A stretch of DNA of 32,000 nucleotides from contig NC_017448.1 in assembly GCF_000146505.1 (NCBI RefSeq), positions 1,860,001-1,892,000 on the forward strand, read 5' to 3'. Source of the DNA: Fibrobacter succinogenes subsp. succinogenes S85 (GTDB lineage Bacteria > Fibrobacterota > Fibrobacteria > Fibrobacterales > Fibrobacteraceae). The position numbers and the translations under genes were made by a program. The notes under the pieces were generated by a model, which ran no database searches, was not told where the DNA came from, and was given only the letters and a program-made list of their open reading frames with translations. Below, in pieces: positions 1 through 24,885 of this stretch (positions within the stretch are counted from its first letter, which is position 1; the number at the start of each line of letters is the position of its first letter).

Positions 1-30
1 CGTAAAATTAAACGCGCAAGTGTTTGAAAG

Positions 31-57
31 GCCTCCGCAACTGCGGAGGCTTTTTTT
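31..57 (+). terminator. Rho-independent terminator of an off-window upstream + strand gene
   Basis: Perfect 8-bp stem GCCTCCGC / GCGGAGGC (31-38 / 43-50) with loop AACT, followed by a T7 run (51-57). Confidence 0.7.
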
Positions 58-111
58 GTATTCAAGATGTTGGTTCAAGACACCGCTCGCAGGATGCCGC
101 AAAGCGCCCAC

Positions 112-140
112 TTGACATTTCGCACCGCAAAGACGATATT
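112..140 (+). promoter_or_regulatory. Candidate sigma70-type promoter for the PARG-like gene
   Basis: TTGACA (112-117), a 17-nt spacer, then GATATT (135-140). It lies 22 nt upstream of the ATG at 163. Confidence 0.4.
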
Positions 141-162
141 AAGGGAAATACACTAGGTAATT

Positions 163-1020
163 ATGCAAAACAAAATTGACTACAAGAAATTAAACATCGA
201 AGTTTACGAAGACACTGCAGAACGTTGCCGCACAAACGCTCGATTGCGCAATTCTATTGAACGCTCTATACACGAACAGAAATTCACCGGAGAGCGAGAA
301 AACGTCGTTGTTGAGAGCCGCGAAATTTTCGCCGAACGTGCCAACATCATCGTCTCGCAAAAACGTACACTTGAAGCCGCCAAAGCATACGCAAACACAA
401 AAGTCGCAGTCCTTAACTTTGCATCCGCATCGCACCCAGGCGGCGGCGTGACAACGGGAGCAGGCGCCCAAGAAGAAAGCATCTGCAGATGTTCCACATT
501 GCACCCATGCCTCCTGGCACCGAAAATGGAAAAGCTTTTCTACGAGCCGCATTGGCACCAGAAAAATGCGCTCCATGATGACGACTGCATTTACACACCT
601 GGCGTAACGGTCATCAAGACCGACACATCCGCCCCCGAATTGCTAGACGAATCCGATTGGTACAACGTAGATGTTATCACCTGTGCTGCACCGAACTTGC
701 GCAATTTTGAACGCAAAAAAGAGTTGCTAGTTGATAAATACGGCTGCGGTTCTATCACCGACGAAGGTCTAAAGCAACTGCACATCAAGAGGCTCCGCCG
801 CATTTTGGATATCGCCATTTTGAACAATGCCGAAAGCATTATCCTCGGAGCATTCGGTTGCGGGGCATTCATGAACGACCCAAGAATCGTCGCAAACGCC
901 ACCGCCGAAGCCATCAAGGATTACCTGCACGCGTTCAAGAATATTGAATTCGCCGTATTCTGCCGACCCGGCTTTGAGCAGAACTACAAGGAGTTCTGCA
1001 AATTGCGGGAGGTAGGGTAA
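163..1020 (+). CDS. Bacterial-type poly(ADP-ribose) glycohydrolase-like macrodomain protein (DUF2263 / TIGR02452-like)
   Basis: 285 aa ORF. It carries the PARG signature GGG-X7-QEE (GGGVTTGAGAQEE, residues 93-105, nt 439-477) inside VLNFASASHPGGG. Downstream are DVITCAAPN and LGAFGCGAFMNDP, typical of this macrodomain family. Confidence 0.8.
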   Translation: MQNKIDYKKLNIEVYEDTAERCRTNARLRNSIERSIHEQKFTGERENVVVESREIFAERANIIVSQKRTLEAAKAYANTKVAVLNFASASHPGGGVTTGAGAQEESICRCSTLHPCLLAPKMEKLFYEPHWHQKNALHDDDCIYTPGVTVIKTDTSAPELLDESDWYNVDVITCAAPNLRNFERKKELLVDKYGCGSITDEGLKQLHIKRLRRILDIAILNNAESIILGAFGCGAFMNDPRIVANATAEAIKDYLHAFKNIEFAVFCRPGFEQNYKEFCKLREVG

Positions 1021-1043
1021 GGTGTACTTTGTCTTGGGTAATT

Positions 1044-2357
1044 TTAAGCGATAACAGGTGTGAACCCTCTTTTGTGCGTGTAGCACAAAGGAATCTTTTT
1101 CGTAGAATCGTCTGCAATTTTGACAATTGTTAGACTGGTTCGTTCAAGCAGCCAAATATCATCAGCTTCTTGCGTGATTTCCAGGACTTCATTGAGTTCA
1201 GTCAATGGAGCGGGTTTCGGTTCATCAAATTTTGCGCGACTTAGCGGGCAGAGAATCAAAATGGATATATTCAATTCCATGGCGAGATTTTTCAGCGTCC
1301 AAGTCGCCATCTTTAATGATTCAGCCTTATTTGCGCTAGAACGAATTTTCAGCAAATGCAGGTAATCAATGATTAGCACGTCTAATGACTTCAGTTGTTT
1401 GTAGAGTCTTGCTTTTTGAGCCAGCTCTGTAAGATCCATATTGGTCGCATCTTCAATTCGTAGATGCGAATGCATGATTTTACCCACCGATGTCACGAGC
1501 ATTTGAGTCTCGGTTTTATCAAGCGCTTCTTCGCAAATTTTACTATAGTCTACACCAGCATACTGGCAAAGGAGCTGTTCGCCACGCCGCGTTCCACAGT
1601 TATCCAAGCTGAAATAAACGACACCCTTGCCATCATCCAACGCAGCACTCGCCGCAACGTTCAACGCAAACGTTCTGATTCCGACCCCCGCATGCGCCGC
1701 AAGAATTGTCAATGCACCTCTACGAAGACGATTCGCCCAGTCCGCCTTACCCGTGTAAGAGCGTTCCATTTCGGCTTGCAACTTTTTCAGATTATTGATT
1801 TTTTGCGGCAGAAATTTTTCAAGGCATTTCTTTTGCTTCACAAAAATTTTATGAATTGCATCTTCGAGCGAAAGCGGTTCCAACAGCAAGGCGGCACATT
1901 GCGCATTGCCCGAATATTCATCAAGCTGCTTTTGTGCAGAATCATCAAATTCACGCCAAATGCTGGGCTTCGGAAACCACTGTGCAATACTTGTAAGCGC
2001 AAACTTGTGTGTATCTTGTAGCATCCCGCAATTTTTCGCAGACTTTTCTACGCATTCCTTGTCAAAAGCCCCAACAATCGTTTGCATTGTTTCGTAGGCG
2101 CGGATGGCACGAGTCATCTTGTCAAGAGCTTTTGCCTTGTCAGTGGAATTTTCGTCAATTCCATCAGTGGGCGGAAATTCCTTTTCTGCAGGAGCGTACG
2201 CTGGATCAAATTCGCAACAATCATCTTCAAAGACCAAGTCCAGCGAATCACATAGATAACCGTAAAATTCTCGCACGTAATTGTAGTAGCGGAAAGCCTT
2301 GTTAATTTCATTTTCTGCCAACGACTCAAAACTGTCTGTCATCTTGTCTTTGAACAT
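1044..2357 (-). CDS. DnaB C-terminal-domain-like RecA-fold protein with degenerate Walker A and an unknown ~210 aa N-terminal region
   Basis: ORF 1044..2435, with the start moved to the MFKDKM ATG at 2357, which is preceded by AAAGGAGGCTCTT. The C-terminal half aligns by eye to DnaB_C: LAAHAGVGIRTFALNVAA versus IAARPsMGKTAFALNIA, YFSLDN versus FSLEMS, VLIIDYLHLL versus LIvIDYLQLM, CPLSR versus SQLSR, and EITQEADDIWLLER versus IEQDADvVxFiYR. There is no DnaB N-terminal domain. Confidence 0.7.
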   Translation of the reverse strand: MFKDKMTDSFESLAENEINKAFRYYNYVREFYGYLCDSLDLVFEDDCCEFDPAYAPAEKEFPPTDGIDENSTDKAKALDKMTRAIRAYETMQTIVGAFDKECVEKSAKNCGMLQDTHKFALTSIAQWFPKPSIWREFDDSAQKQLDEYSGNAQCAALLLEPLSLEDAIHKIFVKQKKCLEKFLPQKINNLKKLQAEMERSYTGKADWANRLRRGALTILAAHAGVGIRTFALNVAASAALDDGKGVVYFSLDNCGTRRGEQLLCQYAGVDYSKICEEALDKTETQMLVTSVGKIMHSHLRIEDATNMDLTELAQKARLYKQLKSLDVLIIDYLHLLKIRSSANKAESLKMATWTLKNLAMELNISILILCPLSRAKFDEPKPAPLTELNEVLEITQEADDIWLLERTSLTIVKIADDSTKKIPLCYTHKRGFTPVIA

Positions 2358-2431
2358 AAGAGCCTCCTTTGTACATCCCAAAATATACCATGACCATACG
2401 ACAACTGTTGACGCATGAAGCAGGCGGACAA

Positions 2432-3694
2432 TCATCCACTCACAGGAATATACGCGACATGGTTTCGCTTTAGCCTTTTAATCCATTTGGCGTGTTCATT
2501 GTAGTTTGATTTTCCGCAGAGCACCCACAGCACGTCTATGGGGCGCTTGGTGTTGAATTTTGGCGGAGGGGCGTAACCGTCAGTAAAGTAGATGAGTCCA
2601 TCATATTCGGGGTGCGCACAGTAATAATCAGCGGCAGGCTGAAAACTTGTTCCTCCGCGGCCCATGATTTTTACGGTTTTGCGCGCCTTTTTTAACGGTT
2701 CGGGCTCGCCTTGAATTTTGGAATCAAACTGCAAAACATCTAGTTTTTCAACACCATATTTAAAGAGCCGGTTAATCACCGAGAAGAAAAATTGCAAGTT
2801 CTTGTCCGTGACAGACCCGCTCACGTCAACAGCAATGAGTAAATTCGTTGAAAGCTCGTAGCGGCTGCCCATGGCATCAAAACCGAAACGTCGATTAGGA
2901 CGCATGCGAGTAAGTCGACGCTTGCTAGAAATCACTGATGTCTTAAACAGACTCAGCATTTTGCGGTAGTCCATATTGACTTTCTTACTTGCCCTGATAA
3001 CGCCTTGCAACTTCTTAGAAATTGATCCCCAGTTATTACTAGCTTCGGCAATTTCGATAAAGCCATTTATATCACAGCAAGCCGATTCGTCTTCTTCCCA
3101 TAACTCCGAAATTTGCGCATCTAGTTTTTCTTGCGTGTCGTTTTTTCCTTGCGTGCTGCGAGAATTGCCGCTGTTCGCGCACGTTTCTCCAAATTCGCTC
3201 GATTCGCAAGATTCGCCTTCGCCCTGCGCAGCCTCGCTGACATCGTTCGGAATCCCGCGGCCATCCGATGGAGCAAAAGGCATAACTGTATCCTTGAGCA
3301 AACTGTAATACTCTTCAAAGCACAAACCACTAGGTAAATTCAATTCTGCGCCGCTCATCAGTCTTTTGACAACGGGCGGAACTTCATAAACATCGTTAAG
3401 CGTGATGTTGCTCGCTCGTGTGAGCAACTGTTTCATTGCAAACGGAGGTTGTCGCTGATACGGGTGCTTGAGTAAAATGCGGAACATTTCAACTTTCAAA
3501 AATTCAGCCAACACAACATCTGAGACGTTGTTCAAAAGCTTCGGGGCAAATTCAACCTTTCTATTCCCAGTTCGCATTGATACATCAAGCGAATCATTCT
3601 CGTAAAATTCGTGACTGCAGTACACAGCAAACAAGAGCGGTTCCGTCAAGAACCATCGTTCACCAATTTTCTTTATTCTATCCAATACAGTCAT
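2432..3694 (-). CDS. vWA-domain protein of the DUF2201 type (metallopeptidase-like N-domain plus C-terminal vWA)
   Basis: 420 aa. The N-terminus (WFLTEPLLFAVY ... KVEMFRILLKH) resembles DUF2201_N. The C-terminal vWA has the MIDAS motif DVSGS (residues 290-294), then GGTSF and FTDGY. An acidic, Ser-rich linker lies between the two domains. Confidence 0.7.
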   Translation of the reverse strand: MTVLDRIKKIGERWFLTEPLLFAVYCSHEFYENDSLDVSMRTGNRKVEFAPKLLNNVSDVVLAEFLKVEMFRILLKHPYQRQPPFAMKQLLTRASNITLNDVYEVPPVVKRLMSGAELNLPSGLCFEEYYSLLKDTVMPFAPSDGRGIPNDVSEAAQGEGESCESSEFGETCANSGNSRSTQGKNDTQEKLDAQISELWEEDESACCDINGFIEIAEASNNWGSISKKLQGVIRASKKVNMDYRKMLSLFKTSVISSKRRLTRMRPNRRFGFDAMGSRYELSTNLLIAVDVSGSVTDKNLQFFFSVINRLFKYGVEKLDVLQFDSKIQGEPEPLKKARKTVKIMGRGGTSFQPAADYYCAHPEYDGLIYFTDGYAPPPKFNTKRPIDVLWVLCGKSNYNEHAKWIKRLKRNHVAYIPVSG

Positions 3695-3727
3695 AGATTT
3701 AAATTATCAGTTCAACGAGTCTCCGCC

Positions 3728-4807
3728 TTAAATTGACTTGATAAATTCCGTAATTTTCTTATACAGTTTTGGACAATGCATAATGACAAACGTCATCGTT
3801 GACGGGTATAGCGAAGACGAATACAAGTTTGCGAAATGCGCCTGCGCCTCGCGGAATTTTTCGCCCGAAAGGAACTCAAAATAAGCGGCAAAATTCGCAG
3901 CCACCCTTGCCACCATTTCAGTATCTTTCTCGTCGTAGTTTTTCGTTTCAATAAAACGGAAGACTAATTCGTTCACGGAGGCAAGTTCCGGCGTAGAACA
4001 TTTTTTAAGTGCAGTCTTTTGCTTTGCAAAATCACCAAGCAAAATTTCCTTTGCACTTGGCAAGCGTTTCCGGTTGATTGTCGCAAAGAACTTTGTTGCG
4101 GCAGGCATACCGATGATTCCCGCAATAATCGTTTTCAAAAGCGAAGAGACCTCGTTCGTCTGTAATATCTTTGAAACGCGTTTCCATCCGCGACGGTCAG
4201 GAGATTTTTCAAGTCCTTGGTCTTCGCGAGTAAAGGCGGCACCGTCAAGCATTTCCGGATTTTCAGAAATGAAATCAATCACGCGACTGTCCAGCCCCGC
4301 CTTTGAAGCCCACAACAGCCATTCTTGCGCAGTGGGCCTAAATTCGTAAATGTTAAAACGGCTCACAAGTGCCGGATCCAAATCCGTCAACTGATATTCT
4401 TCACCATCGTTCACCGCGCTAATCACACGCGAGCCCTCAGGCAATTTGCGCCCCGCAAGCGTGCGATTTAACGTCAAATCCATAATGGTCTGTAACACTT
4501 CCGGGCGAGCGCGATTCAGCTCATCCAAAAACAACACCACCGGCTTGCCATCCGTCGGGAACCAATACGGCGGCATAAACAAAGTCTTACCCGTTGCCTC
4601 GTCAAGTCGCGGGAGGCCAATCAAATCGCCCGGATCACTCATCTGCCCCAAAAACAGAATCACCACGCGCTCGCCACGCGATGTAAAGAACTTCTCCAGG
4701 ATTTGCGACTTGCCAATTCCATGCTTGCCCGTAAGCATTATATTTTGCGAGGCGGGAGTCGCCTCCAACAAGCTTTCCAGTTCTCGTGCATTTATACGTA
4801 CAGACAT
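3728..4807 (-). CDS. MoxR-like AAA+ ATPase (AAA_5 type)
   Basis: 359 aa. Walker A is GKHGIGKS. Walker B is VVLFLDELNRARPEVLQTIMDLTLNRTL. SAVN and LVSRF segments follow. GAGG lies 7 nt upstream of the ATG, and the gap to the upstream gene stop is only 8 nt. Confidence 0.8.
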   Translation of the reverse strand: MSVRINARELESLLEATPASQNIMLTGKHGIGKSQILEKFFTSRGERVVILFLGQMSDPGDLIGLPRLDEATGKTLFMPPYWFPTDGKPVVLFLDELNRARPEVLQTIMDLTLNRTLAGRKLPEGSRVISAVNDGEEYQLTDLDPALVSRFNIYEFRPTAQEWLLWASKAGLDSRVIDFISENPEMLDGAAFTREDQGLEKSPDRRGWKRVSKILQTNEVSSLLKTIIAGIIGMPAATKFFATINRKRLPSAKEILLGDFAKQKTALKKCSTPELASVNELVFRFIETKNYDEKDTEMVARVAANFAAYFEFLSGEKFREAQAHFANLYSSSLYPSTMTFVIMHCPKLYKKITEFIKSI

Positions 4808-4815
4808 ACAGACCT

Positions 4816-5568
4816 CTACAGTTTTAAGATTCCCTTTGTCATTGAAATATCCACAGGAAACGGCATCGTTTCAAGCAAGCCTTCAACGCTTTTGAGCACA
4901 TTAGGTATTGCAGGAATTCTTTTCGTGAAATTTTTATCGTTCAGCGAAATTTCAATCATTCGTTTTTTACCCAATTCAATCTGGAGCAAAAAGTATTTAC
5001 CCTTGTCAGCCAAATTCCATTCGTGACTCAATTGCGACATCATCTGAGCGACGCATGTTTTCAGGCTTAATCTTGATATTTCCTTAAGCTTAGCTTTCTT
5101 CTCAAATTCAACTTTTTCGTTTTCAAGCGCAGTAAGATGCGCCGGGAAATTATCGATAAAGTTCTTTATATTCTTAATGGTCTGCAGCAAGTCGCAAGTA
5201 TCAACCCGATGAGAAAAGGAGTCAATTCCATCGGTTTTAAAATGCACATAATACAACGAATCAGCCAGAATAAATTCAATTGATGAATTCGCTGCGTTCA
5301 GATCAGTGACAATCCTAATTCCACATATTTTATCGCCCTGCTGGAACATATCCCGCTGGAACGCATCACCTTGACTTTTACCCGACCTCACTACATTGCA
5401 CTTGCACCCTGGATAGTGGCTTTTCATCTCATTGTACGCACAAAGGACCTCCCCTTCGGAAGGCGCACACCCACGTTTTCCAGGGACAAGAAGCCCGCAA
5501 ACCCGTTTTTCCCAATACCAGCGAGCAACCGTTTCAAAACTTTCCTTTTTTAAAATCCTGCTAATCAT
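4816..5568 (-). CDS. Hypothetical protein, first gene of the operon, no recognisable domain
   Basis: 250 aa ORF with an N-terminal Cys cluster (C24, C34, C43, C55, C57) and a central predicted coiled segment (LTALENEKVEFEKKAKLKEISRL). It is tightly coupled to the AAA+ gene. A TATATTAT -10-like box lies about 20 nt upstream. Confidence 0.6.
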   Translation of the reverse strand: MISRILKKESFETVARWYWEKRVCGLLVPGKRGCAPSEGEVLCAYNEMKSHYPGCKCNVVRSGKSQGDAFQRDMFQQGDKICGIRIVTDLNAANSSIEFILADSLYYVHFKTDGIDSFSHRVDTCDLLQTIKNIKNFIDNFPAHLTALENEKVEFEKKAKLKEISRLSLKTCVAQMMSQLSHEWNLADKGKYFLLQIELGKKRMIEISLNDKNFTKRIPAIPNVLKSVEGLLETMPFPVDISMTKGILKL

Positions 5569-5656
5569 ATCTATACCCCACGCATAATATAGAACCGGGA
5601 TACGTCAAATAACGACGCATAGACAAGCCGCGCAAAAAGTCAGGCATTTTTCTTAA

Positions 5657-5676
5657 CGTGTATATGACAATACACG
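5657..5676. promoter_or_regulatory. Perfect 7-6-7 palindrome, candidate operator between the WYL regulator and the operon
   Basis: CGTGTAT-ATGACA-ATACACG lies in the 159-bp gap between the regulator stop (5728) and the operon start (5568). No adjacent T-run is present, so it is not a classical terminator. Confidence 0.35.
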
Positions 5677-5727
5677 CACAATCATTATCGTAATGACTAG
5701 TTTTTTAAGGTTGTATTTTTTTGAAGC

Positions 5728-6741
5728 TCACCCGTAAATTGAACGCAAATATTCCCCATATTCCTTGAGGCGCATTTGCAGCGAAGCGGGCTTTATGACG
5801 CGGGCGGCAGTTGAGAATGACACAACCCAGTTCACCAAAAGCTGGTTCACATCAGCTTTCATTTTCACCAAGATTTCGCCATTTTTGGCTAGTCTCATGT
5901 GCATCGTTCGGTTGAACTTGTTTTCCATAAGGTAAAGGCTAGCGCTCATTTCAAATTCAATTTCAACATCTTCAGGATGGGGTTCCTGCTCGCTCATGAA
6001 CGCAGCCCCTGACGTGACCTGCCGACGCAACTTTTCCAGAACTTTCGGATTTTCCACAAACGTTTCCTTGGAGAGTTGCACCTTAACCATTCGCCGGAAC
6101 TTGAGCGTATAGGTGGCATCTTTGACTTTTTCGGATTCGCAACCCACGTAAATTTCGTTCTGATAAACGATAATCATCAAGGGGATGCGGGTTGATTTCT
6201 TGTAAGCGGAGGCGGTTCTGTAAAACACATCAATTTTACGGTGGTCGTGAATCGCCTGGAGAATCGTCCGCATTTTTTCACTAGCATTTTCTTCAATGTC
6301 CGGCGGAGTCCCCATGAAAATGATTTTCGTGTTCAGCTCTTCACCGAGATGGCGGAGCGATTTCTGTTCGCGGCCCGGCAAACTTTTTTCGATGCGCTCC
6401 AGAAGTTGCGAAATAATTTCACTCGTGGCGGGGTAAATATTCGCGATGCGTTTGAGGAACACGAAATGGAGCATCGTATTTTCAAAATTCGGGAACAGGA
6501 GTCTCTCGGCATTGCGAAGCGCCGAGGTGTAATAAGATGTACGCCCAACAGTATCAACTGCGATGTAGCGGCCACCATCCATTTCCGAAAGGAAGCGCAT
6601 GTCGCGTTGCACATTGCGGCGTTCACTCTCAGGAATTTCAAACGAAGTCATCAAGTCGCTGATGGTAAATTTCTTTTCCGGATTTGAAATCACTTTCGCA
6701 AAAAGTTGCACAGTGCGTTCACCGCGAGTCATGTCCGCCAT
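5728..6741 (-). CDS. wHTH-WYL-WCX transcriptional regulator (BrxR/CapW/YafY-like)
   Basis: ORF 5728..6804, with the start moved to the MADMTRGER ATG at 6741, which is preceded by AGGAGTTTTT. The N-terminal wHTH is FTISDLMTSFEIPESERRNVQRDMRFL. The central WYL-like beta segment is IDVFYRTASAYKKSTRIPLMIIVYQNEIYVGCE...YTLKFRRMVKV. The C-terminus (NWVVSFSTAARVIKPASLQMRLKEY) is typical of the WCX tail. Confidence 0.7.
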   Translation of the reverse strand: MADMTRGERTVQLFAKVISNPEKKFTISDLMTSFEIPESERRNVQRDMRFLSEMDGGRYIAVDTVGRTSYYTSALRNAERLLFPNFENTMLHFVFLKRIANIYPATSEIISQLLERIEKSLPGREQKSLRHLGEELNTKIIFMGTPPDIEENASEKMRTILQAIHDHRKIDVFYRTASAYKKSTRIPLMIIVYQNEIYVGCESEKVKDATYTLKFRRMVKVQLSKETFVENPKVLEKLRRQVTSGAAFMSEQEPHPEDVEIEFEMSASLYLMENKFNRTMHMRLAKNGEILVKMKADVNQLLVNWVVSFSTAARVIKPASLQMRLKEYGEYLRSIYG

Positions 6742-6806
6742 AAAAACTCCTGAAGATGTTTTATTAAAAATATAATCAAATACGACAAATGTGGACGCAT
6801 GCAAAT

Positions 6807-7979
6807 TTAGGCATCAAAGCTTACACCGAATGACTTAGGCATCACAATTTCCTTATAGGCATTCATCAAGTAGTCATCGGTCATTCCAGAGACGTAGTCC
6901 GCGACAATGCGTGGGAGCGAAGTCGTTTCTCTGTACTTTTCGCCCAGCGATTCACACCAGTGATTGATTCCGGTCGCCTTTTTCACGCCAGACTGGAGTT
7001 CATCAAAACATTCTTCCAAGACTGTCCGGAACATCATCTTGATCTTTTCGTCTTGGGTTGACTTTTTCGGATTCAAATAGATGTTTTTGTAGTTCCAGTC
7101 TTTCAGCTGGTTAAGCGCATCAAAAACTTCCGGCGAAAAGACGAGCGTTTCTTTGTCTAAACTATTATTGACAAGGTCTGTAATAAGCGTGTTGACGATT
7201 TCGCTATTTTTGCTTCCGAGAATTTTCGTGATTTCTTGGGGGATGTCTTCGCGCTTCACTAGTTTCAAGATGATGGCATCTTCAATGTCGCGGCCAACGT
7301 ACGCAATCACGTCCGAAATTCGCATGACACAGCCCTCCAATGTCATCGGGACCATCTCTTTTGATTTCAGCGTTCCGCTTAAGCTGTTTTTGTATTCTTC
7401 CAGCAGTTTTTCTGGAGTTTTGCTGCGGTTACAGCCGTATTCATTTTTCAGTATTTCGCCGTTGTGGCAGATAATTCCGTCGAGCACTTGCGCGGTAAGA
7501 TTCAGTCCTTTGCCGTATGCTTCAAGGTCATTGAACAGCCTAAAACTTTGAACATTGTGTTCAAAAATTCCGTCACCGCAATCTTGCAAAAACTTTGAGA
7601 CAATTTTTTCGCCATCGTGGCCAAAAGGCGTATGGCCGACATCGTGTCCGAGCGAAATAGCCTCAATCAAGTCTTCGTTCAAATTCAAGAAACGCCCAAT
7701 GGTCCTTGCAATTTTTGCGACCAGTTGCACATGCAGCACTCGGTGCGTGATGTGGTCATTTTCAACAAGGTAAAACGCCTGGGTTTTATCAATGTATCGG
7801 CTATAGCAATAAGAATGGATAATCTTGTCCGCATCACGGGAAAAGTTCGGCCGGATATCGTCAGGCAATTCGTGATAGCGGACCGCAGCCGCAGAATTGC
7901 AGGCGTATTCTGCAAGCGAGTTTTCCTTTTCCATCAAGCGGGATTCAATTTGTTTCTTGACTGAAGCGTTCCATTCCAT
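6807..7979 (-). CDS. HD-domain dNTP triphosphohydrolase (dGTPase-like)
   Basis: 390 aa. Motifs seen are FSRDADKIIHSYCYSRYIDKTQAF, THRVLHVQLVAKIAR and LGHDVGHTPFGHDGE, all hallmarks of the Dgt/dNTPase family. Confidence 0.8.
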   Translation of the reverse strand: MEWNASVKKQIESRLMEKENSLAEYACNSAAAVRYHELPDDIRPNFSRDADKIIHSYCYSRYIDKTQAFYLVENDHITHRVLHVQLVAKIARTIGRFLNLNEDLIEAISLGHDVGHTPFGHDGEKIVSKFLQDCGDGIFEHNVQSFRLFNDLEAYGKGLNLTAQVLDGIICHNGEILKNEYGCNRSKTPEKLLEEYKNSLSGTLKSKEMVPMTLEGCVMRISDVIAYVGRDIEDAIILKLVKREDIPQEITKILGSKNSEIVNTLITDLVNNSLDKETLVFSPEVFDALNQLKDWNYKNIYLNPKKSTQDEKIKMMFRTVLEECFDELQSGVKKATGINHWCESLGEKYRETTSLPRIVADYVSGMTDDYLMNAYKEIVMPKSFGVSFDA

Positions 7980-8035
7980 AAAACAGTTCCATTAGATAAA
8001 AATCATTTTCGTTTAATAAAATATATAAAACCAGC

Positions 8036-8098: not shown

Positions 8099-10786
8099 TT
8101 ACTTCACCACGATGTTCACGAGCTTGCCCGGAACGACGATGGACTTCACGACGGTTTTGCCAGCCATAAACTCCTTCACGCGGTCGTTGTCCATGGCGAG
8201 CTTTTCGAGGGCAGCCTTGTCCATGTCCTTCGCGACAGAGGCCTTCGCGCGGACCTTGCCGTTCACCTGGAACACGACTTCGACGGTGTTTTCCACGGCC
8301 TTGGAGTGGTCGGCTTCGGGCCAGGCGACGTTCGTGAGCGATTCGTTGTGGCCAAGGATGCTCCACATTTCTTCGGCGATATGCGGGGCAAACGGGTGTA
8401 AGAGCTTGACGAACGTTTCGCACGGTTCGCGGTAGCGCTTGTCCATCTTCATCATTTCGTTGTTGAAGATCATCAACTGGCTGATGGCGGTGTTGAAGCT
8501 CATGTTTTCAATGTCGTTCGTGACCTTGATAACGCTCTGGTGCATCACCTTTTCGATAGCTTCCGGAGCAGCTTCGTCAACGAAGACCGGGGCTTCATCG
8601 CTGTCGCCGACAACAGAACGCCAGGCGCGGCCGAGGAAGCGGTTCATGCCTTCAATGCCCTTGGTCTGCCACGGCTTCACGGCATCGAGCGGTCCCATGA
8701 ACATTTCGTACAAGCGAAGGCTATCAGCACCGTAATCACGGACAACGTCATCCGGGTTCACGACGTTCTTGAGGGACTTACTCATCTTAGCCACAATCTG
8801 CTTGAGTTCGATGTCAGTACCCTTCTTGAAGTACTTGCCATTCTTTTCTTCAACTTCGTCAGTCGGGACCTTGGAGCCAGCGGCGTCTTCGTATGCGAAG
8901 GCAAGAATCATGCCCTGGTTGAAGAGTTTCTGGAACGGTTCATCGGTAGAGACGAGGCCGAGGTCAAAGAGCACCTTGTGCCAGAAACGGCTGTAGAGCA
9001 AGTGAAGCACGGCGTGTTCGGCACCACCCACATAGAGGTCGACCGGCATCCAGTACTTTTCAAGTTCCTTTGCCACAAATGCGTCGCCATTGCAAGCGTC
9101 GATGTAGCGGAGGTAATACCAGCAAGAGCCTGCCCACTGCGGCATGGTGTTCGTTTCGCGGATACCCTTGCGGCCGTTCTTATCAACGACCTGGAGCCAT
9201 TCGGTGGCGTTAGCGAGCGGAGACTGACCGCCGTCACCCGGCTTGTAGTCCTTGAGTTCCGGCAAGAGCACCGGAAGTTCGGCATCGTCCACCGTAGAGA
9301 TTTCGCCATCTTCCCAGTGGATAATCGGGAACGGTTCGCCCCAGTAGCGCTGACGGCTGAAGAGCCAGTCGCGGAGCTTGTAGTTCACGGTAGCCTTACC
9401 GATCTTGTTGGCTTCGAGCCATTCGATAACCTTGGCGATACCCTGCTTCTTGTTGAGACCGTTCAAGCAAAGCGTTGCATTTTCGCTGTTGATGTAGGTG
9501 CCGTCGGCAGCCCAGCAAGCTTCGCCCTTGAGCACGAGCGGCTTTACATCTTCGGGGCAGCTTGCATCCGGCTCCATGATGCAGATAACCGGCAAGTTGA
9601 ACTTCTTTGCAAAGTCAAAGTCACGGGTATCGTGGGCCGGCACAGCCATGATAGCGCCAGTGCCATAGCCCGTCAAAACGTAGTCAGCAACCCACACCGG
9701 AATCTTCGTGCCGGTGAGCGGGTTCACAGCGTAAGAACCTGTAAACACACCGGTCTTTTCCTTGGCGAGTTCCGTACGGTCGAGATCGCTCTTGAGAGCG
9801 GCGGCATGCACGTATTCTTCCACGGCGACCTTCTGTTCGGCAGTCGTGAGTTCCGGCACCATAGCGTGTTCCGGAGCAACGACCATGTAGGTGGCACCGA
9901 ACAGCGTATCGCAACGGGTCGTGTAAACGCGGAGCTTCTTTTCGGTCGGCTTGCCTTCAGCATCGGCAATGGCAAAATCAACTTCGGCACCATAGCTCTT
10001 GCCGATCCAGTTCTTCTGCATGTCCTTCACGCCCTGCGGCCAGTCGAGCTTGTCAAGGCCCTTCAGCAGGCGGTCGCCATACAGCGGAATACGCATGAGC
10101 CACTGCTTGAGGTTACGGCGTTCCACTTCCTTGGTGCCGCACTTTTCGTGAGAACCATCGTTCAAGACTTCTTCGTTTGCGCAAACAATCTTGCAGTGCT
10201 TGCACCACCACACCTGAGCGTCGGCATAGTAAGCGAGGCGCTTCCCATCCTTGTACTTGCGGACTTCTTCCTTGCCCTTTGCTTCGACATCGGCCGGAAT
10301 CGGGAGTTCTTCAATGGGGCGGCCCTTCTGCTGGTCTTCATCGAACCAGGTGCCGTAAAGGCGCTTGAAAATCCACTGCGTCCACTTGTAATACTTCGGA
10401 TCGGTGGTGTTGACTTCCTTGTTCCAGTCGTAAGAGAGGCCGAGGCGCTTGATCTGGCGGCGGAAATTGTCGCAATTCTTCTTGGTCGTAATGGCCGGGT
10501 GCGTACCAGTCTGGATGGCGTACTGTTCAGCAGGGAGGCCGAAAGCATCCCAACCCATCGGGTGAAGCACATTGAAACCGCGGCTGCGCTTGTAGCGGCA
10601 AATGATATCCGTTGCAGTGTAACCTTCCGGGTGGCCCACATGGAGGCCAGCACCACTCGGGTACGGGAACATATCCAAGCAATAATACTTCGGCTTGGAC
10701 TTGTCTTCGCCAGTCTTAAACGTCTGATGTTCTTCCCAGTAGGCTTGCCACTTGGTTTCGATTTCTTGCGGATTATACTTTGCCAT
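8099..10786 (-). CDS. leuS: Leucyl-tRNA synthetase
   Basis: 895 aa. It has a class I HIGH motif (HVGHPEGY), a KMSKS motif (AKMSKSLKN) and a typical LeuRS N-terminus ([16 protein letters not shown]). Confidence 0.95.
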
Positions 10787-10814
10787 TTGCTTTGTACCTC
10801 GTATGGTTCTGCTA

Positions 10815-10851
10815 GACGAGAGACGAAAGACGAGAGACGAAAGAATTCGTC
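10815..10851. repeat. Tandem 2 x 14 bp repeat (GACGAGAGACGAAA) plus an inverted TCGTC, in the leuS leader
   Basis: Copy 1 is 10815-10828 and copy 2 is 10829-10842. Together they give four GACGA pentamers at 7-nt spacing. An inverted TCGTC sits at 10847-10851. The element lies 29-65 nt upstream of the leuS ATG. Confidence 0.8.
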
Positions 10852-10919
10852 AAGCCTGTCCAACAGTCTTGCCGCTTGCAGGACTTCATTAAATTTCGAG
10901 GCAAAATTTAGAAAAATAT

Positions 10920-11954
10920 CTAGAAGGATTCACATTCTTCCCAGTCGTTCTGCTCATTGAACCTGTAGCATTTCGTGCCATCAGACATTACAACAGAACA
11001 AGTATCGCCGACAACGGTATCCTCTTTTTGGCAATTAGCGATTATTTGAGCCTTATCCGTAAGCGAAAGTGAAGTTTCTTTCCAAGCTCCATTCCCAATA
11101 TAGGTGTAAGAATACTTGGAGCAACCAAGACCCGCAAAACATGCTTCCTTAGTGCATATGTCACCAACAGCAACACCCGTCGTATCACAGGTTATTCTCC
11201 GGTCTCTTAAAGTCCACAGACCCTTTTCGCACCTGTAATAATCTGTATGTCCAACAGAACGGAATCTAGGATTGCTTGCACCCACCCACGCAGAATCCAC
11301 CTTGCCTTCTTCTTCAGCAGAGCACGTCAATGAGGCATCATCTTCTGCCGAACTACTCGAAAGTTCAGAATCACTATAATATTCATCACGTCCGATTTTC
11401 ACCCACTGACTGTCAGCGCACTTGTAATATAAGGCGCCTGGCCAACGCATATTATGAAAAACATAAATTTCCTTACGGCCTTCATTTTCGGCATTGCATT
11501 TTACTTCTTCCCATCCATTTCCTGCATAGGAATAAAGAGAAATTTCAGCATGGTCCAAAATCGAAAACGTTTCTTCGATACTTGGGCCATAGGCTTCGCC
11601 CAAACAAAAATACTCCGTCTTCACGCCGTCAAACGCAGCGATACTAACAGCATCGTGTCCTTCTCTGCATTTTTCATTCATTTTTTCCAACGACGGGCGC
11701 TCAATTTCTTGAACAGAACTACTCGAAGCCACATTGCTAGAAGACTCAGGGCTTGAAACAGCCTCGCTGCTAGAAGATACTGGACCTGAGCCAATCTCAT
11801 TACTAGAAGCCACGCTACTCGAAGATTCTACAGCCGACGATCCAGTCGCTGCGGGAATCGGGTTACTCACGGCATCGTCACCGCACGCCGTAAAAGACAA
11901 AACTGAAATAGATGCTAGCATCGCTAGCACTGAAGCATGATTCCTTTTGAACAT
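10920..11954 (-). CDS. Secreted lipoprotein with a Ser-rich linker and Cys-containing repeat modules
   Basis: 344 aa. The signal peptide with lipobox is LSFTAC. A Ser-rich linker follows, then repeated modules: C.AE.EG...YY[KR]C..G.W, CDTTGVAVGDIC and YIGNGAWKE. It is a paralog of the next gene. Confidence 0.7.
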   Translation of the reverse strand: MFKRNHASVLAMLASISVLSFTACGDDAVSNPIPAATGSSAVESSSSVASSNEIGSGPVSSSSEAVSSPESSSNVASSSSVQEIERPSLEKMNEKCREGHDAVSIAAFDGVKTEYFCLGEAYGPSIEETFSILDHAEISLYSYAGNGWEEVKCNAENEGRKEIYVFHNMRWPGALYYKCADSQWVKIGRDEYYSDSELSSSSAEDDASLTCSAEEEGKVDSAWVGASNPRFRSVGHTDYYRCEKGLWTLRDRRITCDTTGVAVGDICTKEACFAGLGCSKYSYTYIGNGAWKETSLSLTDKAQIIANCQKEDTVVGDTCSVVMSDGTKCYRFNEQNDWEECESF

Positions 11955-12055: not shown

Positions 12056-13390
12056 TTACTGAGCCTTTTTCTCTGGATAAATAAAGGAGATTCTCACAAT
12101 AGAATTATCCTTGCATCCAACCACACGGCTTAACCTATATCGACTCGCAGGAATCGTATCCCGAACGCTTTGGGGGTCTTCAGATTTGCTACACACTGTG
12201 TTATGGAGTAGTTCGTCAGCAATTTCTTCATCTGTAGTTTCCAAAGTCCAAGTTCCATCTTCCCGGTAGCGATAATAATTCTGAGGCAAGCAATAACTAT
12301 ACTGAAAACCGATATCATAATTATGCTCTAGCTTTTGCGCCAAGAGAACATCCTTATCCCAGCAATCTTCAAGCAAGCCTGCAGCACGATCATTTACAGA
12401 AGCTTCTTTAGGCAAATCCAGAACATCGTATTCCTCGTCAGTCAAGCCCTTTTTCCGAGGATCCGTATATTGTTGCGGAATAAGTTTTGTGGGTTTCCAT
12501 TTACCTTCATCACAATAATAGAACGCACCATCAGATTCTTTAAAACGTTGTCTATAATACGCGTATTCACGAATCGGGCATGCGCCCAATTTAGGGTCAA
12601 AATTACTCTCATACCAATAGCCATCCTCAAATAGATAATACTGCTTTTCACCTTGCGATTCAAACGAGCAAGAATCTCCTTCAACAGTTTTACTAGTCGT
12701 GCAGTTATAAACAACTTCATCTACGAGTTCCCACACAATACCTTCGTCATGCGCCCCTCCTAAATCAGAATGCACAACATGTAAGCATTGATAGTATGCC
12801 GTATATCCATTTGAATATGTAATTTTTCCAGTATCCCATTCATTTTCAGCATTGCATTCTTTGGCGGGAGCCTTCAAGCATTCGCTTTCATTCCAGATTC
12901 CGTTTCCCACATATTCATAGCATTTTCCCCAACGATCGCCACAGCAGTAAAAGCCGCCCTCCGAAATATGCACATTACAAAGACTCCCTACAGATACCCC
13001 CGCAGTATCGCAAGCGGCAACCGGCTCCGCCTCATACCAATTGCCCTTTTCGCACTTATAATAATTAATCGTAAAGCCATATTTAGCATTACCATTCCAT
13101 ATCGAATCGACAGCGCCCTCATTGTGCGCATCACACTTTGAAAGTTGCGTTAAATTCACGATTCTTGATGCACTCGAAATTTCAGAACGACTCGAAGCCA
13201 CATCACTAGAAGATATTGGATTTGAAAAGGTTTCGCTACTTGAAGATTCCGTAGCAGACGACTCTATCGCCGACGATCCAGCCGCCACGGGCATCGGATT
13301 ACTCCCAGCATCGTCGCTGCATGCCGCGAACGGCAAAACCGAAATAGACGCTAGCATTGCTAGCACATAGCCATGATTCCTTTCGAACAT
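12056..13390 (-). CDS. Secreted lipoprotein, paralog of 10920-11954
   Basis: ORF 12056..13507, with the start moved to the MFERNHGYVLAML ATG at 13390, which is preceded by GGGAG. The lipobox is PFAAC, followed by a Ser-rich linker. Modules seen are KCDAHNEG...YYKCEKGNWY, CDTAGVSVGSLC, YVGNGIWNE, ECNAENEW...YYQC and FYYCDEGKWKP. The 5' end is nucleotide-similar to that of the neighbouring gene. Confidence 0.7.
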   Translation of the reverse strand: MFERNHGYVLAMLASISVLPFAACSDDAGSNPMPVAAGSSAIESSATESSSSETFSNPISSSDVASSRSEISSASRIVNLTQLSKCDAHNEGAVDSIWNGNAKYGFTINYYKCEKGNWYEAEPVAACDTAGVSVGSLCNVHISEGGFYCCGDRWGKCYEYVGNGIWNESECLKAPAKECNAENEWDTGKITYSNGYTAYYQCLHVVHSDLGGAHDEGIVWELVDEVVYNCTTSKTVEGDSCSFESQGEKQYYLFEDGYWYESNFDPKLGACPIREYAYYRQRFKESDGAFYYCDEGKWKPTKLIPQQYTDPRKKGLTDEEYDVLDLPKEASVNDRAAGLLEDCWDKDVLLAQKLEHNYDIGFQYSYCLPQNYYRYREDGTWTLETTDEEIADELLHNTVCSKSEDPQSVRDTIPASRYRLSRVVGCKDNSIVRISFIYPEKKAQ

Positions 13391-13535
13391 AAAAACAACT
13401 CCCATTATGTTCCAAAATTTATCAGTAAAATACAAACTCACAACTTCAAAAATCATTTCTACAAAAAATTGTAAGAAAAAAAGAAGCCCTGAATGGCGGC
13501 CACCCATCCAGAGCTAAAATTATAAGTCTACGCTG

Positions 13536-13979
13536 TTAGTTTTCACCGTTTCGCATTTCAGTCTGCTCACGGTCCATGGTGTAGGTCAGGTATTCTCTAA
13601 AGTCACGTTCGATCTCCACTTCTGGAGTTTCGTTAACATAACCGGCGAAAATTTCAAAAAGATCCGGATTGTCCGTCCAGCCAAGCACACCGACAGCATT
13701 AAACGTCATGGACTTATCGCCCGGAGCACTGGCTATGTATTCAATCTTGGACTTTTCGACCCAGCCTTGTCCACAGCTTCCTTTTACGAGAACTTCCGTG
13801 TCAGCATCCCTGACAATCGTAAGAGCGTCGTTAAAGCCTGCCGTACACACGACTTTGCCACCACCTTTTTCTGATGTAACATTGATATCACCCAGCTTAG
13901 ACTTTACTTGCCTCGCCGCAAAAGAAGACGAGACCAGAACAGACAAAGCAAGGAACATCATCAACTTTGCGGTTTTCAT
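13536..13979 (-). CDS. Small secreted protein of unknown function, possibly SH3b-like
   Basis: 147 aa with a cleavable-looking signal peptide (MKTAKLMMFLALSVLVSSSFAARQ). AGGAGG lies upstream of the ATG. No catalytic motif was recognised. Confidence 0.55.
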   Translation of the reverse strand: MKTAKLMMFLALSVLVSSSFAARQVKSKLGDINVTSEKGGGKVVCTAGFNDALTIVRDADTEVLVKGSCGQGWVEKSKIEYIASAPGDKSMTFNAVGVLGWTDNPDLFEIFAGYVNETPEVEIERDFREYLTYTMDREQTEMRNGEN

Positions 13980-14223
13980 GATTGACCTCCTTTATTTATT
14001 AGGGGTGGGACATCCACCCACTTTTCAAATTACAAAGTAAAGTTTACATAGACCAGAAAAACCTTAGTTCAACTTAGAATAGAGACTAATCGTCCCGCTT
14101 TGATTCAGCACGCCCAGCAAGTAACGCACGAGTCCATTCTGTAAACTTTCTTTTTCTGTTTATTTAACCCTTATTAAAATATTTTTAAGTCGTTGAACCT
14201 CCACGATTTGTTATTATTCCGTC

Positions 14224-15084
14224 ATGCTTTTAAGAAAATCTTGTCTTCTTGCGTCTATGGTTTTAGCACTTACCACAAGTGCATTCGCTCAAAGTTCCGA
14301 CGATGACGAATGGGTTTCTGTTGATTCACCGAGGCCAGCCTCCGAAACCGACAAATCCGGCTCTTACGACGGATCCAACGACAGCGAATTCGCAAATGAC
14401 GAAGAATACGCAAGCGCTTACGCCAGATACAAGACACAGACAACGTCTCGCTCCGAAATCAGCAAGCAGCGCAGTGAAGGGTTCTCGCAGTCCGTGTTCC
14501 TTGGAGCACGTCTGCAGGGCGGATTTAACACGTTCCTCGGTTCTAAATCCGATGGTTGGGGCGCTGGCTGGAATGCAGGCGCAGGCCTTATCATCAAGAT
14601 TTCGATGTTCACGAAAAACTTTAGCCTTGTACCGGAACTGACGTTCAACTATCGCCAGTACAATTACGAAAAGGACATGAACGATCTTTACACGAACAAG
14701 GCTAAGATCAACATCATGTTGTTTGAACTTCCTATCATGTTCCGCTACACATTTGACCAATATGACTTCTTTGCTGCCGCCGGTTTGCACCTCGGTCTCA
14801 AGCTGATGGGTAGCGCCGAATATGGTTCCGAACCGAAGGCTGGTGTCATCGCCGATAAGGAAAACAGTGGTTTGAAATCCACTACCGAAATCGCCACGAC
14901 GAACATGGAAGTAGGCTTTGCAATCGAAGGCGGTTACATGCTCACGCGTAACGTTCATTTGAACCTCCGCATTGTCCAGAGCATTACGAACCTCTTGAAC
15001 CAGGGCTTGACGGTCAAGCAGCCGTTTGACAAGGCCACGCTCCTCACGTTCTACACGAACGTCGGTATCGCATTCCTGTTCTAG
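14224..15084 (+). CDS. Outer-membrane beta-barrel protein (OmpA-like/porin-family barrel)
   Basis: 286 aa. The signal peptide ends SAFAQS. An acidic, Ser-rich linker follows, then alternating amphipathic strands and a C-terminal aromatic signature (NVGIAFLF). Confidence 0.7.
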   Translation: MLLRKSCLLASMVLALTTSAFAQSSDDDEWVSVDSPRPASETDKSGSYDGSNDSEFANDEEYASAYARYKTQTTSRSEISKQRSEGFSQSVFLGARLQGGFNTFLGSKSDGWGAGWNAGAGLIIKISMFTKNFSLVPELTFNYRQYNYEKDMNDLYTNKAKINIMLFELPIMFRYTFDQYDFFAAAGLHLGLKLMGSAEYGSEPKAGVIADKENSGLKSTTEIATTNMEVGFAIEGGYMLTRNVHLNLRIVQSITNLLNQGLTVKQPFDKATLLTFYTNVGIAFLF

Positions 15085-18676: not shown

Positions 18677-22330
<3,654 letters not shown>

Positions 22331-24807: not shown

Positions 24808-24885
24808 CGCTATATAATATAATTAAATAAAAAAATTAACTACCCATGCAACCACCCGTAAACCCCATGCATCAAAAATAACGAA

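Follow-up and report, generated by a model that had tools for sequence, protein, structure and literature searches.

A MoxR-vWA locus of Fibrobacter succinogenes S85, a putative new subtype of the predicted ternary conflict systems

RESULTS

A conserved triad followed by an interchangeable gene

Within a 32,000-nucleotide window of the genome of Fibrobacter succinogenes S85, part of CP001792.1, five co-oriented genes occupy positions 1044-6741 of the minus strand. We suggest, from sequence comparison, that this block should be regarded as a new subtype among the computationally predicted MoxR-vWA ternary conflict systems. Our tentative reading, held at somewhat less than even confidence, is that S85 carries here one copy of an ATP-driven remodelling system that has spread horizontally and is most likely a conflict module directed against phages or other mobile elements. 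The unusual features of the locus are a dead zincin-like domain joined to a von Willebrand factor A (vWA) domain, a superfamily of third components (TC), and cargo made of fragments of core cellular machines. The elements of the block are as follows (window coordinates).

5728-6741, minus strand: WYL-WCX transcription regulator, 337 residues (Pfam WYL and WCX)
5569-5727, minus strand: intergenic region between regulator and operon, 159 nt (sequence)
4816-5568, minus strand: third component (TC), 250 residues, FSU_1615 (homologue clusters and profile comparison)
3728-4807, minus strand: MoxR-type AAA+ ATPase (AAA_5), 359 residues (Pfam AAA_5)
2432-3694, minus strand: protein with a DUF2201_N zincin-like domain and a C-terminal vWA domain (Pfam DUF2201_N and DUF2201)
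1044-2357, minus strand: DnaB-like gene, candidate cargo or effector, 437 residues (Pfam DnaB_C)

Open reading frame (ORF) calls agree with the coordinates, strand and gaps given in a preliminary description of this DNA (159, 8, 33 and 74 nt from the WYL gene through the DnaB-like gene), and Pfam bears out its domain calls of WYL plus WCX, AAA_5, DUF2201 and DnaB_C. That description had taken the four genes behind the regulator as one unit, which the comparison of 85 loci does not support. These loci comprise contigs carrying homologues of the 250-residue protein and 80 loci retrieved with MoxR from one genome per species; their ORFs were called and clustered by custom scripts. The ORF caller misread the WYL gene in locus L004 and the MoxR gene in the GC-rich viral contig L100, and because it missed some genes, the WYL and TC counts given here are lower bounds. 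The MoxR gene is followed directly by the DUF2201 vWA gene in 82 of the 85 loci. The slot after the vWA gene is filled by the DnaB-like gene in S85, by a paralogue of the 250-residue protein in L002, L005, L010 and L016, and elsewhere by other uncharacterised genes or by nothing. Since this last gene varies, the conserved core is the triad TC-MoxR-vWA, its TC having about 240 residues, rather than a four-gene operon, with the DnaB-like gene interchangeable. Between Fibrobacter species, MoxR is 87 to 92% identical, the vWA protein 70 to 80% and TC 41 to 70%, compared with 80% for the neighboring dGTPase.

Distribution of the family

A pattern scan matched the triad family in 354 of 185,579 species genomes (about 0.2%). 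The hosts are Fibrobacter, Treponema and other Spirochaetaceae, Elusimicrobia and several families of Bacteroidales, mostly from rumen or gut, with MoxR identities of 57 to 92%. As judged from these sequences, the family is patchy and probably spread horizontally across four bacterial phyla. It is not a core syntenic locus: chromosomal position and gene order vary even within Fibrobacter, where at least five island contexts were found, namely between leuS-dGTPase and PARG (S85), between tonB/TPR genes, with or without the dGTPase gene, and an addB-like gene (five or six species, the content being shuffled), and behind SUI1/GH10, behind a NERD-UvrD helicase gene and behind ffh. The system is not phage- or plasmid-borne. 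Among 2.9 million viral contigs, this MoxR subfamily was present in a single one and TC in none, and a plasmid search returned only four distant megaplasmid matches. No integrase or tRNA gene was found in the window or among the top recurrent neighbor families.

The MoxR motor and its zincin-vWA partner

The MoxR protein matches AAA_5 (1.2e-09) and phrog_1297 (5.7e-55). With Walker A (GKHGIGKS, residues 27-34, window 4706-4729) and Walker B (LFLDE, residues 92-96, window 4520-4534) both intact and the vWA gene 33 nt downstream, its earlier identification as a MoxR-like AAA+ ATPase holds. It shares 57 to 70% identity with the proteins of Treponema, Elusimicrobia and Bacteroidales, and the nearest solved relatives by sequence are the AAA domains of Midasin (1e-09).

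The vWA protein scores above the curated cutoffs for both DUF2201 (6.9e-13) and DUF2201_N (2.9e-05), and it also matches phrog_1314 (8.7e-36). Its metal-ion adhesion site (MIDAS) is intact, with DVSGS at window 2813-2827, GRGGT at 2648-2662 and FTDG at 2576-2587, in keeping with the vWA/DUF2201 assignment made in the preliminary description. The zincin-like domain lacks HExxH; in the segment VEMFRILLKHPYQRQP (window 3446-3493), VEMFR aligns where phage homologues read HEIEH or HELLH. We aligned 82 bacterial homologues with the proteins of phages PAP02 and AR9. In all 15 bacterial sequences inspected of the 82 aligned, xE..R followed by a strongly conserved LLKHPYQRQP replaces HExxH, which both phage proteins retain; no sequence inspected deviates at the MIDAS residues (DxSGS, T, D). 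Because HExxH is lost and the MIDAS is kept, the bacterial clade is predicted to combine a working metal-ion adhesion site with a dead peptidase domain.

The third component belongs to a superfamily

The 250-residue TC product is 100% identical to FSU_1615 and has no match in Pfam, NCBIfam, PHROG or PADLOC. It had been described as an orphan; instead, it is a member of a superfamily in which at least 147 clusters (50% identity) were counted. This number was obtained with a Fibrobacter-only TC profile among 1.84 billion representatives, and most of the 147 clusters match only profile positions of about 125 to 237, the C-terminal module. Homologue retrieval gave 32 clusters of 42 to 100% identity. 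Profile comparison with hhalign joins the Fibrobacter family F3 to the Bacteroidia family F9 (7.6e-09) and the Treponema family F2 to the C-terminal two-thirds of the Treponema family F7 (3e-12), weaker hhalign links connect all TC families, and HMMER cross-matches together with a bridging Treponema protein (L018) unite them into one superfamily with 87 to 88 members in the 85 loci. The C-terminal module (residues about 126-237, window 4858-5193) is common to the whole superfamily, which also occurs in Treponema, Bacteroidia and Elusimicrobia; the S85 protein represents the Fibrobacter branch.

The N-terminal half differs between branches. In Fibrobacter it is cysteine rich, with conserved Cys residues and an invariant PSEGE loop (window 5449-5463), and in the Treponema family F7 the N-terminal part is a homologue of the FlhB C-terminal domain. 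There are also proteins of about 560 to 600 residues in which a WGR domain precedes two TC modules; in L097 (2513-5829), such a protein of 589 residues is encoded directly upstream of an orthologous MoxR gene and a DUF2201_N gene. A Peptidase_S8 gene stands immediately before this fusion gene.

The AlphaFold2 (AF2) model of TC (pLDDT 81.5) shows an alpha+beta protein that does not have a P-loop fold, in the predicted order of two helices, a five-stranded meander, a long helix, a three-stranded meander and a final helix. A Foldseek search of this model against the PDB gave no match with E<0.03. We considered whether TC could be the inactive-STAND P-loop protein (iSTAND) that is the third component of one described subtype; we rejected this because the AF2 model is alpha+beta without a significant PDB neighbor, and no P-loop NTPase was matched.

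The DnaB-like gene as one of several candidate cargo genes

DnaB_C (3.1e-35) covers residues 236-436 of the long ORF 1044-2435, which places the domain at about window 1128-1730; the 2357 start, giving 437 residues, is backed by the N-termini of homologues and by the NCBI gene call. A broken P-loop had been pointed out in this protein. This proved right, the Walker A lysine being absent, and the catalytic Glu, the sensor Gln and the Arg finger are lost as well. Compared with the genuine DnaB proteins P0073, P0076 and P0078, GKT has become GIRT, SLEM SLDN, SQLNR CPLSR, and DLRESG ELNEVL; the degenerate positions are Walker A (1671-1694), Glu to Asp (1599-1613), Gln to Pro (1236-1250) and Arg to Asn (1188-1202). 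Throughout the DnaB-like family, G[I/M/L][K/R]T replaces GKT, Asp or Asn the catalytic Glu, mostly Pro the sensor Gln, and Asn, Ile or Thr the Arg finger, so that only Walker B is kept. The NCBIfam DnaB models score far under their cutoff on this protein (112 versus 385 bits).

The N-domain (residues about 1-200, window 1758-2357) is all-helical, and its AF2 model is a helical bundle (pLDDT 82.9) for which Foldseek found no PDB match with E<1. It is not the DnaB N-terminal domain, having no Pfam match and an unrelated helical bundle as its model. This N-domain is 60 to 92% identical among Fibrobacter proteins whose C-termini differ, its partners being the dead DnaB-C, a Fic domain (P0050, with HSFSDGNKR, which we take to be the Doc-type variant of the Fic motif) and uncharacterised domains of 200 residues in proteins of 400 to 419 residues. 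N-domain genes share an island with the triad in L002, L017 and L092. By these comparisons, there are several alternative cargo genes, the DnaB-like gene among them.

Fragments of other core machines occur in related islands. Besides proteins consisting only of DnaB-C, some of them degenerate (F17), the Fibrobacter island L089 encodes a lone 368-residue fragment of the DNA polymerase III alpha subunit (DnaE; 13434-14540) with part of DNA_pol3_alpha and the finger domain, accompanied by an N-domain-Fic gene, a Metallophos gene, a ResIII/methyltransferase pair, DUF3800 and WYL. In Treponema, the islands include genes for the cytoplasmic domain of FlhA in soluble form (FHIPEP 3.3e-63), for the FlhB-C-TC fusion and for a FliG-C protein. 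Extra genes of such islands (L035 8089-8412, 12418-13392 and 16869-17642; L046 6431-7555) are a cREC_REC receiver gene, 2 to 4 tandem TC paralogues, an HNH/NUMOD4 protein and, on the opposite strand, a truncated FliG-C protein. Recurrent in related islands are nucleases (HNH, GIY-YIG), Metallophos proteins and a protein with two AAA domains. The last, family F6 (about 777 residues; L006, L010, L012, L014 and L017, with a large counterpart at L035 4122-6356), has two classical AAA domains and is similar to the additional AAA+ protein of the FtsH ternary systems (PMC7159879). Its assignment to Iet was rejected because the PADLOC IetA match extends only over the generic AAA domain, positions 112-270 of the 374 in the profile.

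The WYL regulator and its intergenic region

The regulator matches WYL (3.6e-05; residues about 156-222, window 6076-6276) and WCX (3.5e-06; residues about 256-327, window 5761-5976), and PADLOC WYL models match it at 3.9e-18 and 3.5e-13, one of them spanning residues 18-321. The WYL and WCX parts of the architecture proposed earlier are thus confirmed, while the N-terminal winged helix-turn-helix (HTH) that was to precede them is presumed, Pfam reporting no HTH at E<=0.01. The 6741 start is backed by a 338-residue homologue with 81% identity; an 81% identical WYL orthologue lies upstream of the triad in L004. A sequence search found no relative of solved structure.

The association of the regulator with the operon recurs in several phyla, with the same WYL BLAST family present in 20 of the 85 loci, or in 17 of 51 if only loci of 15 kb or more are counted. 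It stands upstream of TC in S85, L004 and L009, giving the order WYL-TC-MoxR-vWA, at the operon end in nine Treponema loci, divergently after the vWA gene in Bacteroidia, and nearby in Porphyromonas. The 159-nt region between the S85 regulator and the operon holds a 7-nt inverted repeat, CGTGTAT-N6-ATACACG (5657-5676); the region is a candidate promoter/operator, and the repeat may be the operator. A sigma-70 scan of this region gave nothing above shuffle expectation, and tRNA, Rfam, promoter and terminator scans were of no help in placing boundaries or in understanding regulation. Just upstream of the WYL gene, the 3' end of the dGTPase gene contains two exact copies of a 10-nt direct repeat, TTAGGCATCA, at 6807-6816 and, 28 nt on, at 6835-6844.

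Flanking genes

Two genes border the block in S85.

6807-7979, minus strand: HD-domain dGTPase-like triphosphohydrolase, island edge (Pfam HD and HD_assoc)
163-1020, plus strand: microbial-type PARG/TIGR02452 macrodomain gene, convergent with the operon (Pfam PARG_cat_microb)

The preliminary description had cited both as signs of a defense island. The genes themselves are real, but a classical defense-island context for S85 is not borne out, the flanks further out being hisG, recR, mlaE and similar genes on the left and leuS on the right. The PARG gene (PARG_cat_microb 1.1e-35, TIGR02452 7.9e-50) is a singleton among the 85 loci and probably a mere neighbor. It is still adjacent in L096, a metagenomic contig that is 97.2% identical over window 1-6764 and diverges just upstream of the WYL gene (L096 position 6861); beyond this break, a 747-residue MORN-repeat gene takes the place of dGTPase and leuS. 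The dGTPase-like protein matches the PADLOC dGTPase model (5.7e-63), and its best NCBIfam scores are with housekeeping-type models, none reaching its cutoff. Orthologues with 80% identity adjoin the island in L006, L011 and L013, behind F15 instead of leuS. The gene thus accompanies the island edge in two different contexts, and its membership in the system is uncertain. The leuS gene adjoins the MoxR-vWA pair in S85 (8099-10786), in the Treponema metagenome-assembled genome L072 (12375-14924) and in the Spirochaetaceae metagenome-assembled genome L019 (1-774), which could be coincidence or a shared insertion hotspot.

Defense-type neighbors were seen at sister loci, including McrBC, the NERD-UvrD helicase (PADLOC RTasNERD-Hel, 1.7e-35), a pair resembling type III restriction-modification (ResIII plus methyltransferase), DUF3800, GIY-YIG, HNH and an SNF2 helicase. 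Since the PADLOC scan of the 143 recurrent neighbor families had no background control, its defense-like matches are used only qualitatively.

Elsewhere in the window, the long ORFs at 8540-10960 (plus strand), 19382-22297 (minus) and 23749-24822 (plus) lie antisense to leuS, to the gene of a 1217-residue protein (18677-22330) and to a membrane-protein gene, respectively, and are almost certainly non-coding shadows. The adjacent genes 10920-11954 and 12056-13507 encode Ser-rich, Cys-containing proteins with similar signal-peptide-like N-termini and are unrelated to the system.

DISCUSSION

Relation to known systems

No named defense system matches the operon, as the preliminary description had held: searches of PADLOC-DB 2.0 with TC, MoxR, the vWA protein and the DnaB-like protein gave no match at E<=0.01, and only the flanking WYL and dGTPase proteins matched. 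The literature searched contained no paper on a bacterial DUF2201/MoxR system and no functional work on these families. The locus is not without precedent. MoxR-vWA-centric ternary conflict systems have been predicted in VMAP, iSTAND, FtsH and beta-propeller subtypes (Kaur, Burroughs, Iyer and Aravind, eLife 2020, PMC7159879), and the concept, inactive peptidase domains included, was restated in 2026 (PMC12839542). Like the S85 family, those systems combine a core pair of MoxR and vWA with a distinct third protein that evolves rapidly; their effectors vary and include inactive enzyme or peptidase domains, their phyletic spread is patchy, and they follow an adaptor logic in which one domain occurs both on a core component and on effectors.

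There are differences too. In VMAP systems, MoxR bears an N-terminal extension (WxhapG/PsWRxa), for which the S85 protein has no room because its Walker A starts at residue 27, and the S85 TC is a 250-residue protein without a known domain. Unlike iSTAND systems, the S85 locus has a TC that is not a P-loop protein, and its vWA domain is C-terminal to DUF2201_N rather than combined with a CoxE-type four-helix N-domain. The S85 vWA protein has a dead zincin N-terminus and no C-terminal effector, effectors being separate genes, and the family occurs in Fibrobacter, Treponema and Bacteroidales of rumen and gut instead of the multicellular bacteria of Kaur et al. The one supplement searched contained no Fibrobacter or DUF2201 entry. 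The S85 locus thus shares the general theme while lacking the defining features of each of the four described subtypes, which makes it a putative new subtype of that theme.

Phages carry related pairs. Those of N4-like Schitoviridae and of AR9/PBS1 jumbo phages have the same Pfam families and gene order, with proteins of 356 and about 410 to 470 residues, and rV5-like phages carry MoxR. The pairs differ from the bacterial ones in being only about 25 to 30% identical, in lying in early or replication regions and in having neither TC nor WYL; they also keep HExxH, for which reason the phage zincin-vWA proteins are presumably active proteases. In the N4-like phage PAP02 the order is ATPase, hypothetical protein, DUF2201, helicase, DNA polymerase, and the AR9 pair lies behind an early promoter. 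An ancestral MoxR-vWA-DnaB link through N4-like phages was ruled out, the phage helicase belonging to superfamily 1 (SF1). A role in virion assembly has been proposed for phage MoxR/vWA (PMC7824862), and the MoxR of one rV5-group phage is reported to be needed to overcome the defense system DS-28 (10.1101/2025.11.20.689424).

Three further comparisons bear on individual components. Midasin/Rea1, like the S85 locus, combines an AAA_5 motor with a MIDAS site; it is one giant polypeptide with six fused AAA domains that acts in ribosome biogenesis, whereas the S85 motor and MIDAS are encoded by separate genes. The Midasin MIDAS grips an acidic loop of its partner, and the AAA_5 motor mechanically pulls the partner off its complex. 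BrxR and CapW resemble the S85 regulator in having WYL and WCX domains, about 330 residues and a co-oriented position at the edge of an accessory operon; the S85 protein differs in having no detectable sequence similarity to any solved structure and no HTH detected by Pfam. The likewise uncharacterised Escherichia coli cluster yehF/yehH(molR)/yehI-yehLMPQ, in which WGR proteins are encoded upstream of MoxR and vWA, parallels the WGR-TC arrangement of L097, but its accessory genes are others (YehM, and YehI with DUF4132). Orthology with YehL was ruled out: identity is 24% over 206 residues, which places YehL in a different MoxR subfamily.

A working model and its alternatives

In the remodelling system that we tentatively favor, the WYL protein would repress the operon as long as no ligand or damage signal is present, as BrxR and CapW do. 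The vWA MIDAS might hold an acidic loop of TC, of the cargo or of both, these contacts being conjectural, with the dead zincin domain serving as a peptide clamp rather than a protease. The variable N-terminal half of TC would sense an invader-derived cue, upon which the MoxR ring, by hydrolyzing ATP, would pull the MIDAS-bound partner in the manner of Midasin and free or activate the cargo. In S85 the cargo would be a helical adaptor with a dead DnaB-C that poisons or traps replicative-helicase assemblies and so stops DNA replication; a dominant-negative DnaB-C would agree with the Fic/Doc-type domain that paralogues have in its place. Several observations weigh against a conflict module. Of the 51 MoxR-vWA loci that reach 15 kb, 22 have no detectable TC, and most MoxR-vWA loci without TC also lack WYL and lie beside housekeeping genes, among which the S85 locus itself is found. 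No known defense hidden Markov model matches any operon protein, the S85 operon encodes no obvious enzymatic toxin, and a MoxR conserved this strongly could also be a housekeeping chaperone.

Such a chaperone, an assembly factor that like CbbQ-CbbO, NorQ-NorD or RavA-ViaA would mature or activate some cellular complex, with TC and the remaining genes acting as substrate adaptors and without a role in conflict, we hold to be unlikely. MoxR is indeed more conserved than the neighboring dGTPase, many loci lie amid housekeeping genes (Lon, AspRS, LeuS), the flagellar paralogues of Treponema loci (FlhA-C, FlhB-C, FliG-C) could point to assembly, and the background given in PMC8926400 presents known MoxR-vWA pairs as chaperones. 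A family found in only about 0.2% of species genomes, patchy across phyla and variable in position within one genus, is not what a housekeeping function would lead one to expect; nor are a fast-evolving partner that swaps domains and the linkage to WYL regulators, nucleases and Fic domains. Since Fibrobacter and Bacteroidales are not known to be flagellated, no common client is evident. A similarly unlikely explanation is that only TC-MoxR-vWA forms a system, and that WYL and the N-domain/DnaB-C gene are separate single-gene elements gathered in a recombination hotspot. In L017 the N-domain/DnaB-C and WYL genes lie 5 to 8 kb from the triad in a different order, the N-domain-Fic gene of L089 has no MoxR gene within 10 kb on either side, many triads lack both WYL and N-domain/DnaB-C genes, and the content of the Fibrobacter tonB/TPR-addB islands is shuffled. 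Against such independence stand the tight spacing of the co-oriented S85 genes (8, 33 and 74 nt), the recurrence of WYL-TC-MoxR-vWA in S85, L004 and L009, the WYL gene that closes the operon in nine Treponema loci, and the N-domain genes that stay in the same islands in L002, L017 and L092.

The block could be a relic or domesticated module of a phage or mobile element, a replication cassette that serves an integrated element in takeover or anti-defense, and this we regard as quite improbable. The phrog_1297 (5.7e-55) and phrog_1314 (8.7e-36) matches, the gene arrangements of PAP02 and AR9, the reported need for an rV5-group MoxR in overcoming DS-28 (10.1101/2025.11.20.689424) and a G+C content over window 1-8000 slightly below that of leuS speak for it. 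These are offset by the low identity to the phage proteins (about 25 to 30%), which keep the HExxH lost from the bacterial sequences inspected, by a phage helicase that is SF1 and not DnaB-like, and by the near absence of the subfamily from 2.9 million viral contigs; moreover, neither the window nor the recurrent neighbor families contain an integrase, tRNA or structural gene, and the genes show no disruption and evolve under purifying selection between species. A decidedly unlikely but distinct possibility is an integrated-decoy immune system, in which dead or truncated copies of host machines (DnaB-C, the DnaE fragment, FlhA-C, FlhB-C, FliG-C) would bait phage hijackers or inhibitors, the bait being held by the MIDAS and read out by MoxR, and toxins (Fic/Doc, HNH, GIY-YIG) would then fire. 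If true, this would be a prokaryotic counterpart of the integrated decoys of plant NLR proteins and would give a first function to the widespread DUF2201/MoxR pair, phage versions included.

Significance

MoxR-vWA pairs are among the commonest uncharacterised ATPase modules of bacteria and phages, and the literature searched contained no experimentally worked example of a MoxR-vWA ternary conflict system. The S85 locus is a compact subtype, with three core genes, a regulator and a cargo, and it has tractable features: Walker B and MIDAS as handles, a dead protease domain to be compared with live phage homologues, and a swappable effector slot, filled either by a dead helicase domain or by one of Fic/Doc type. 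If the system that we favor is antiphage, it would represent a new mechanistic class, in which dominant-negative or decoy fragments of core machines are released mechanically as in Midasin, and it would give a starting point for explaining the presence of this pair in N4-like, rV5-like and jumbo phages. The locus is also of relevance to rumen microbiology, since ruminant Fibrobacter, Treponema and Bacteroidales are where the family is concentrated.

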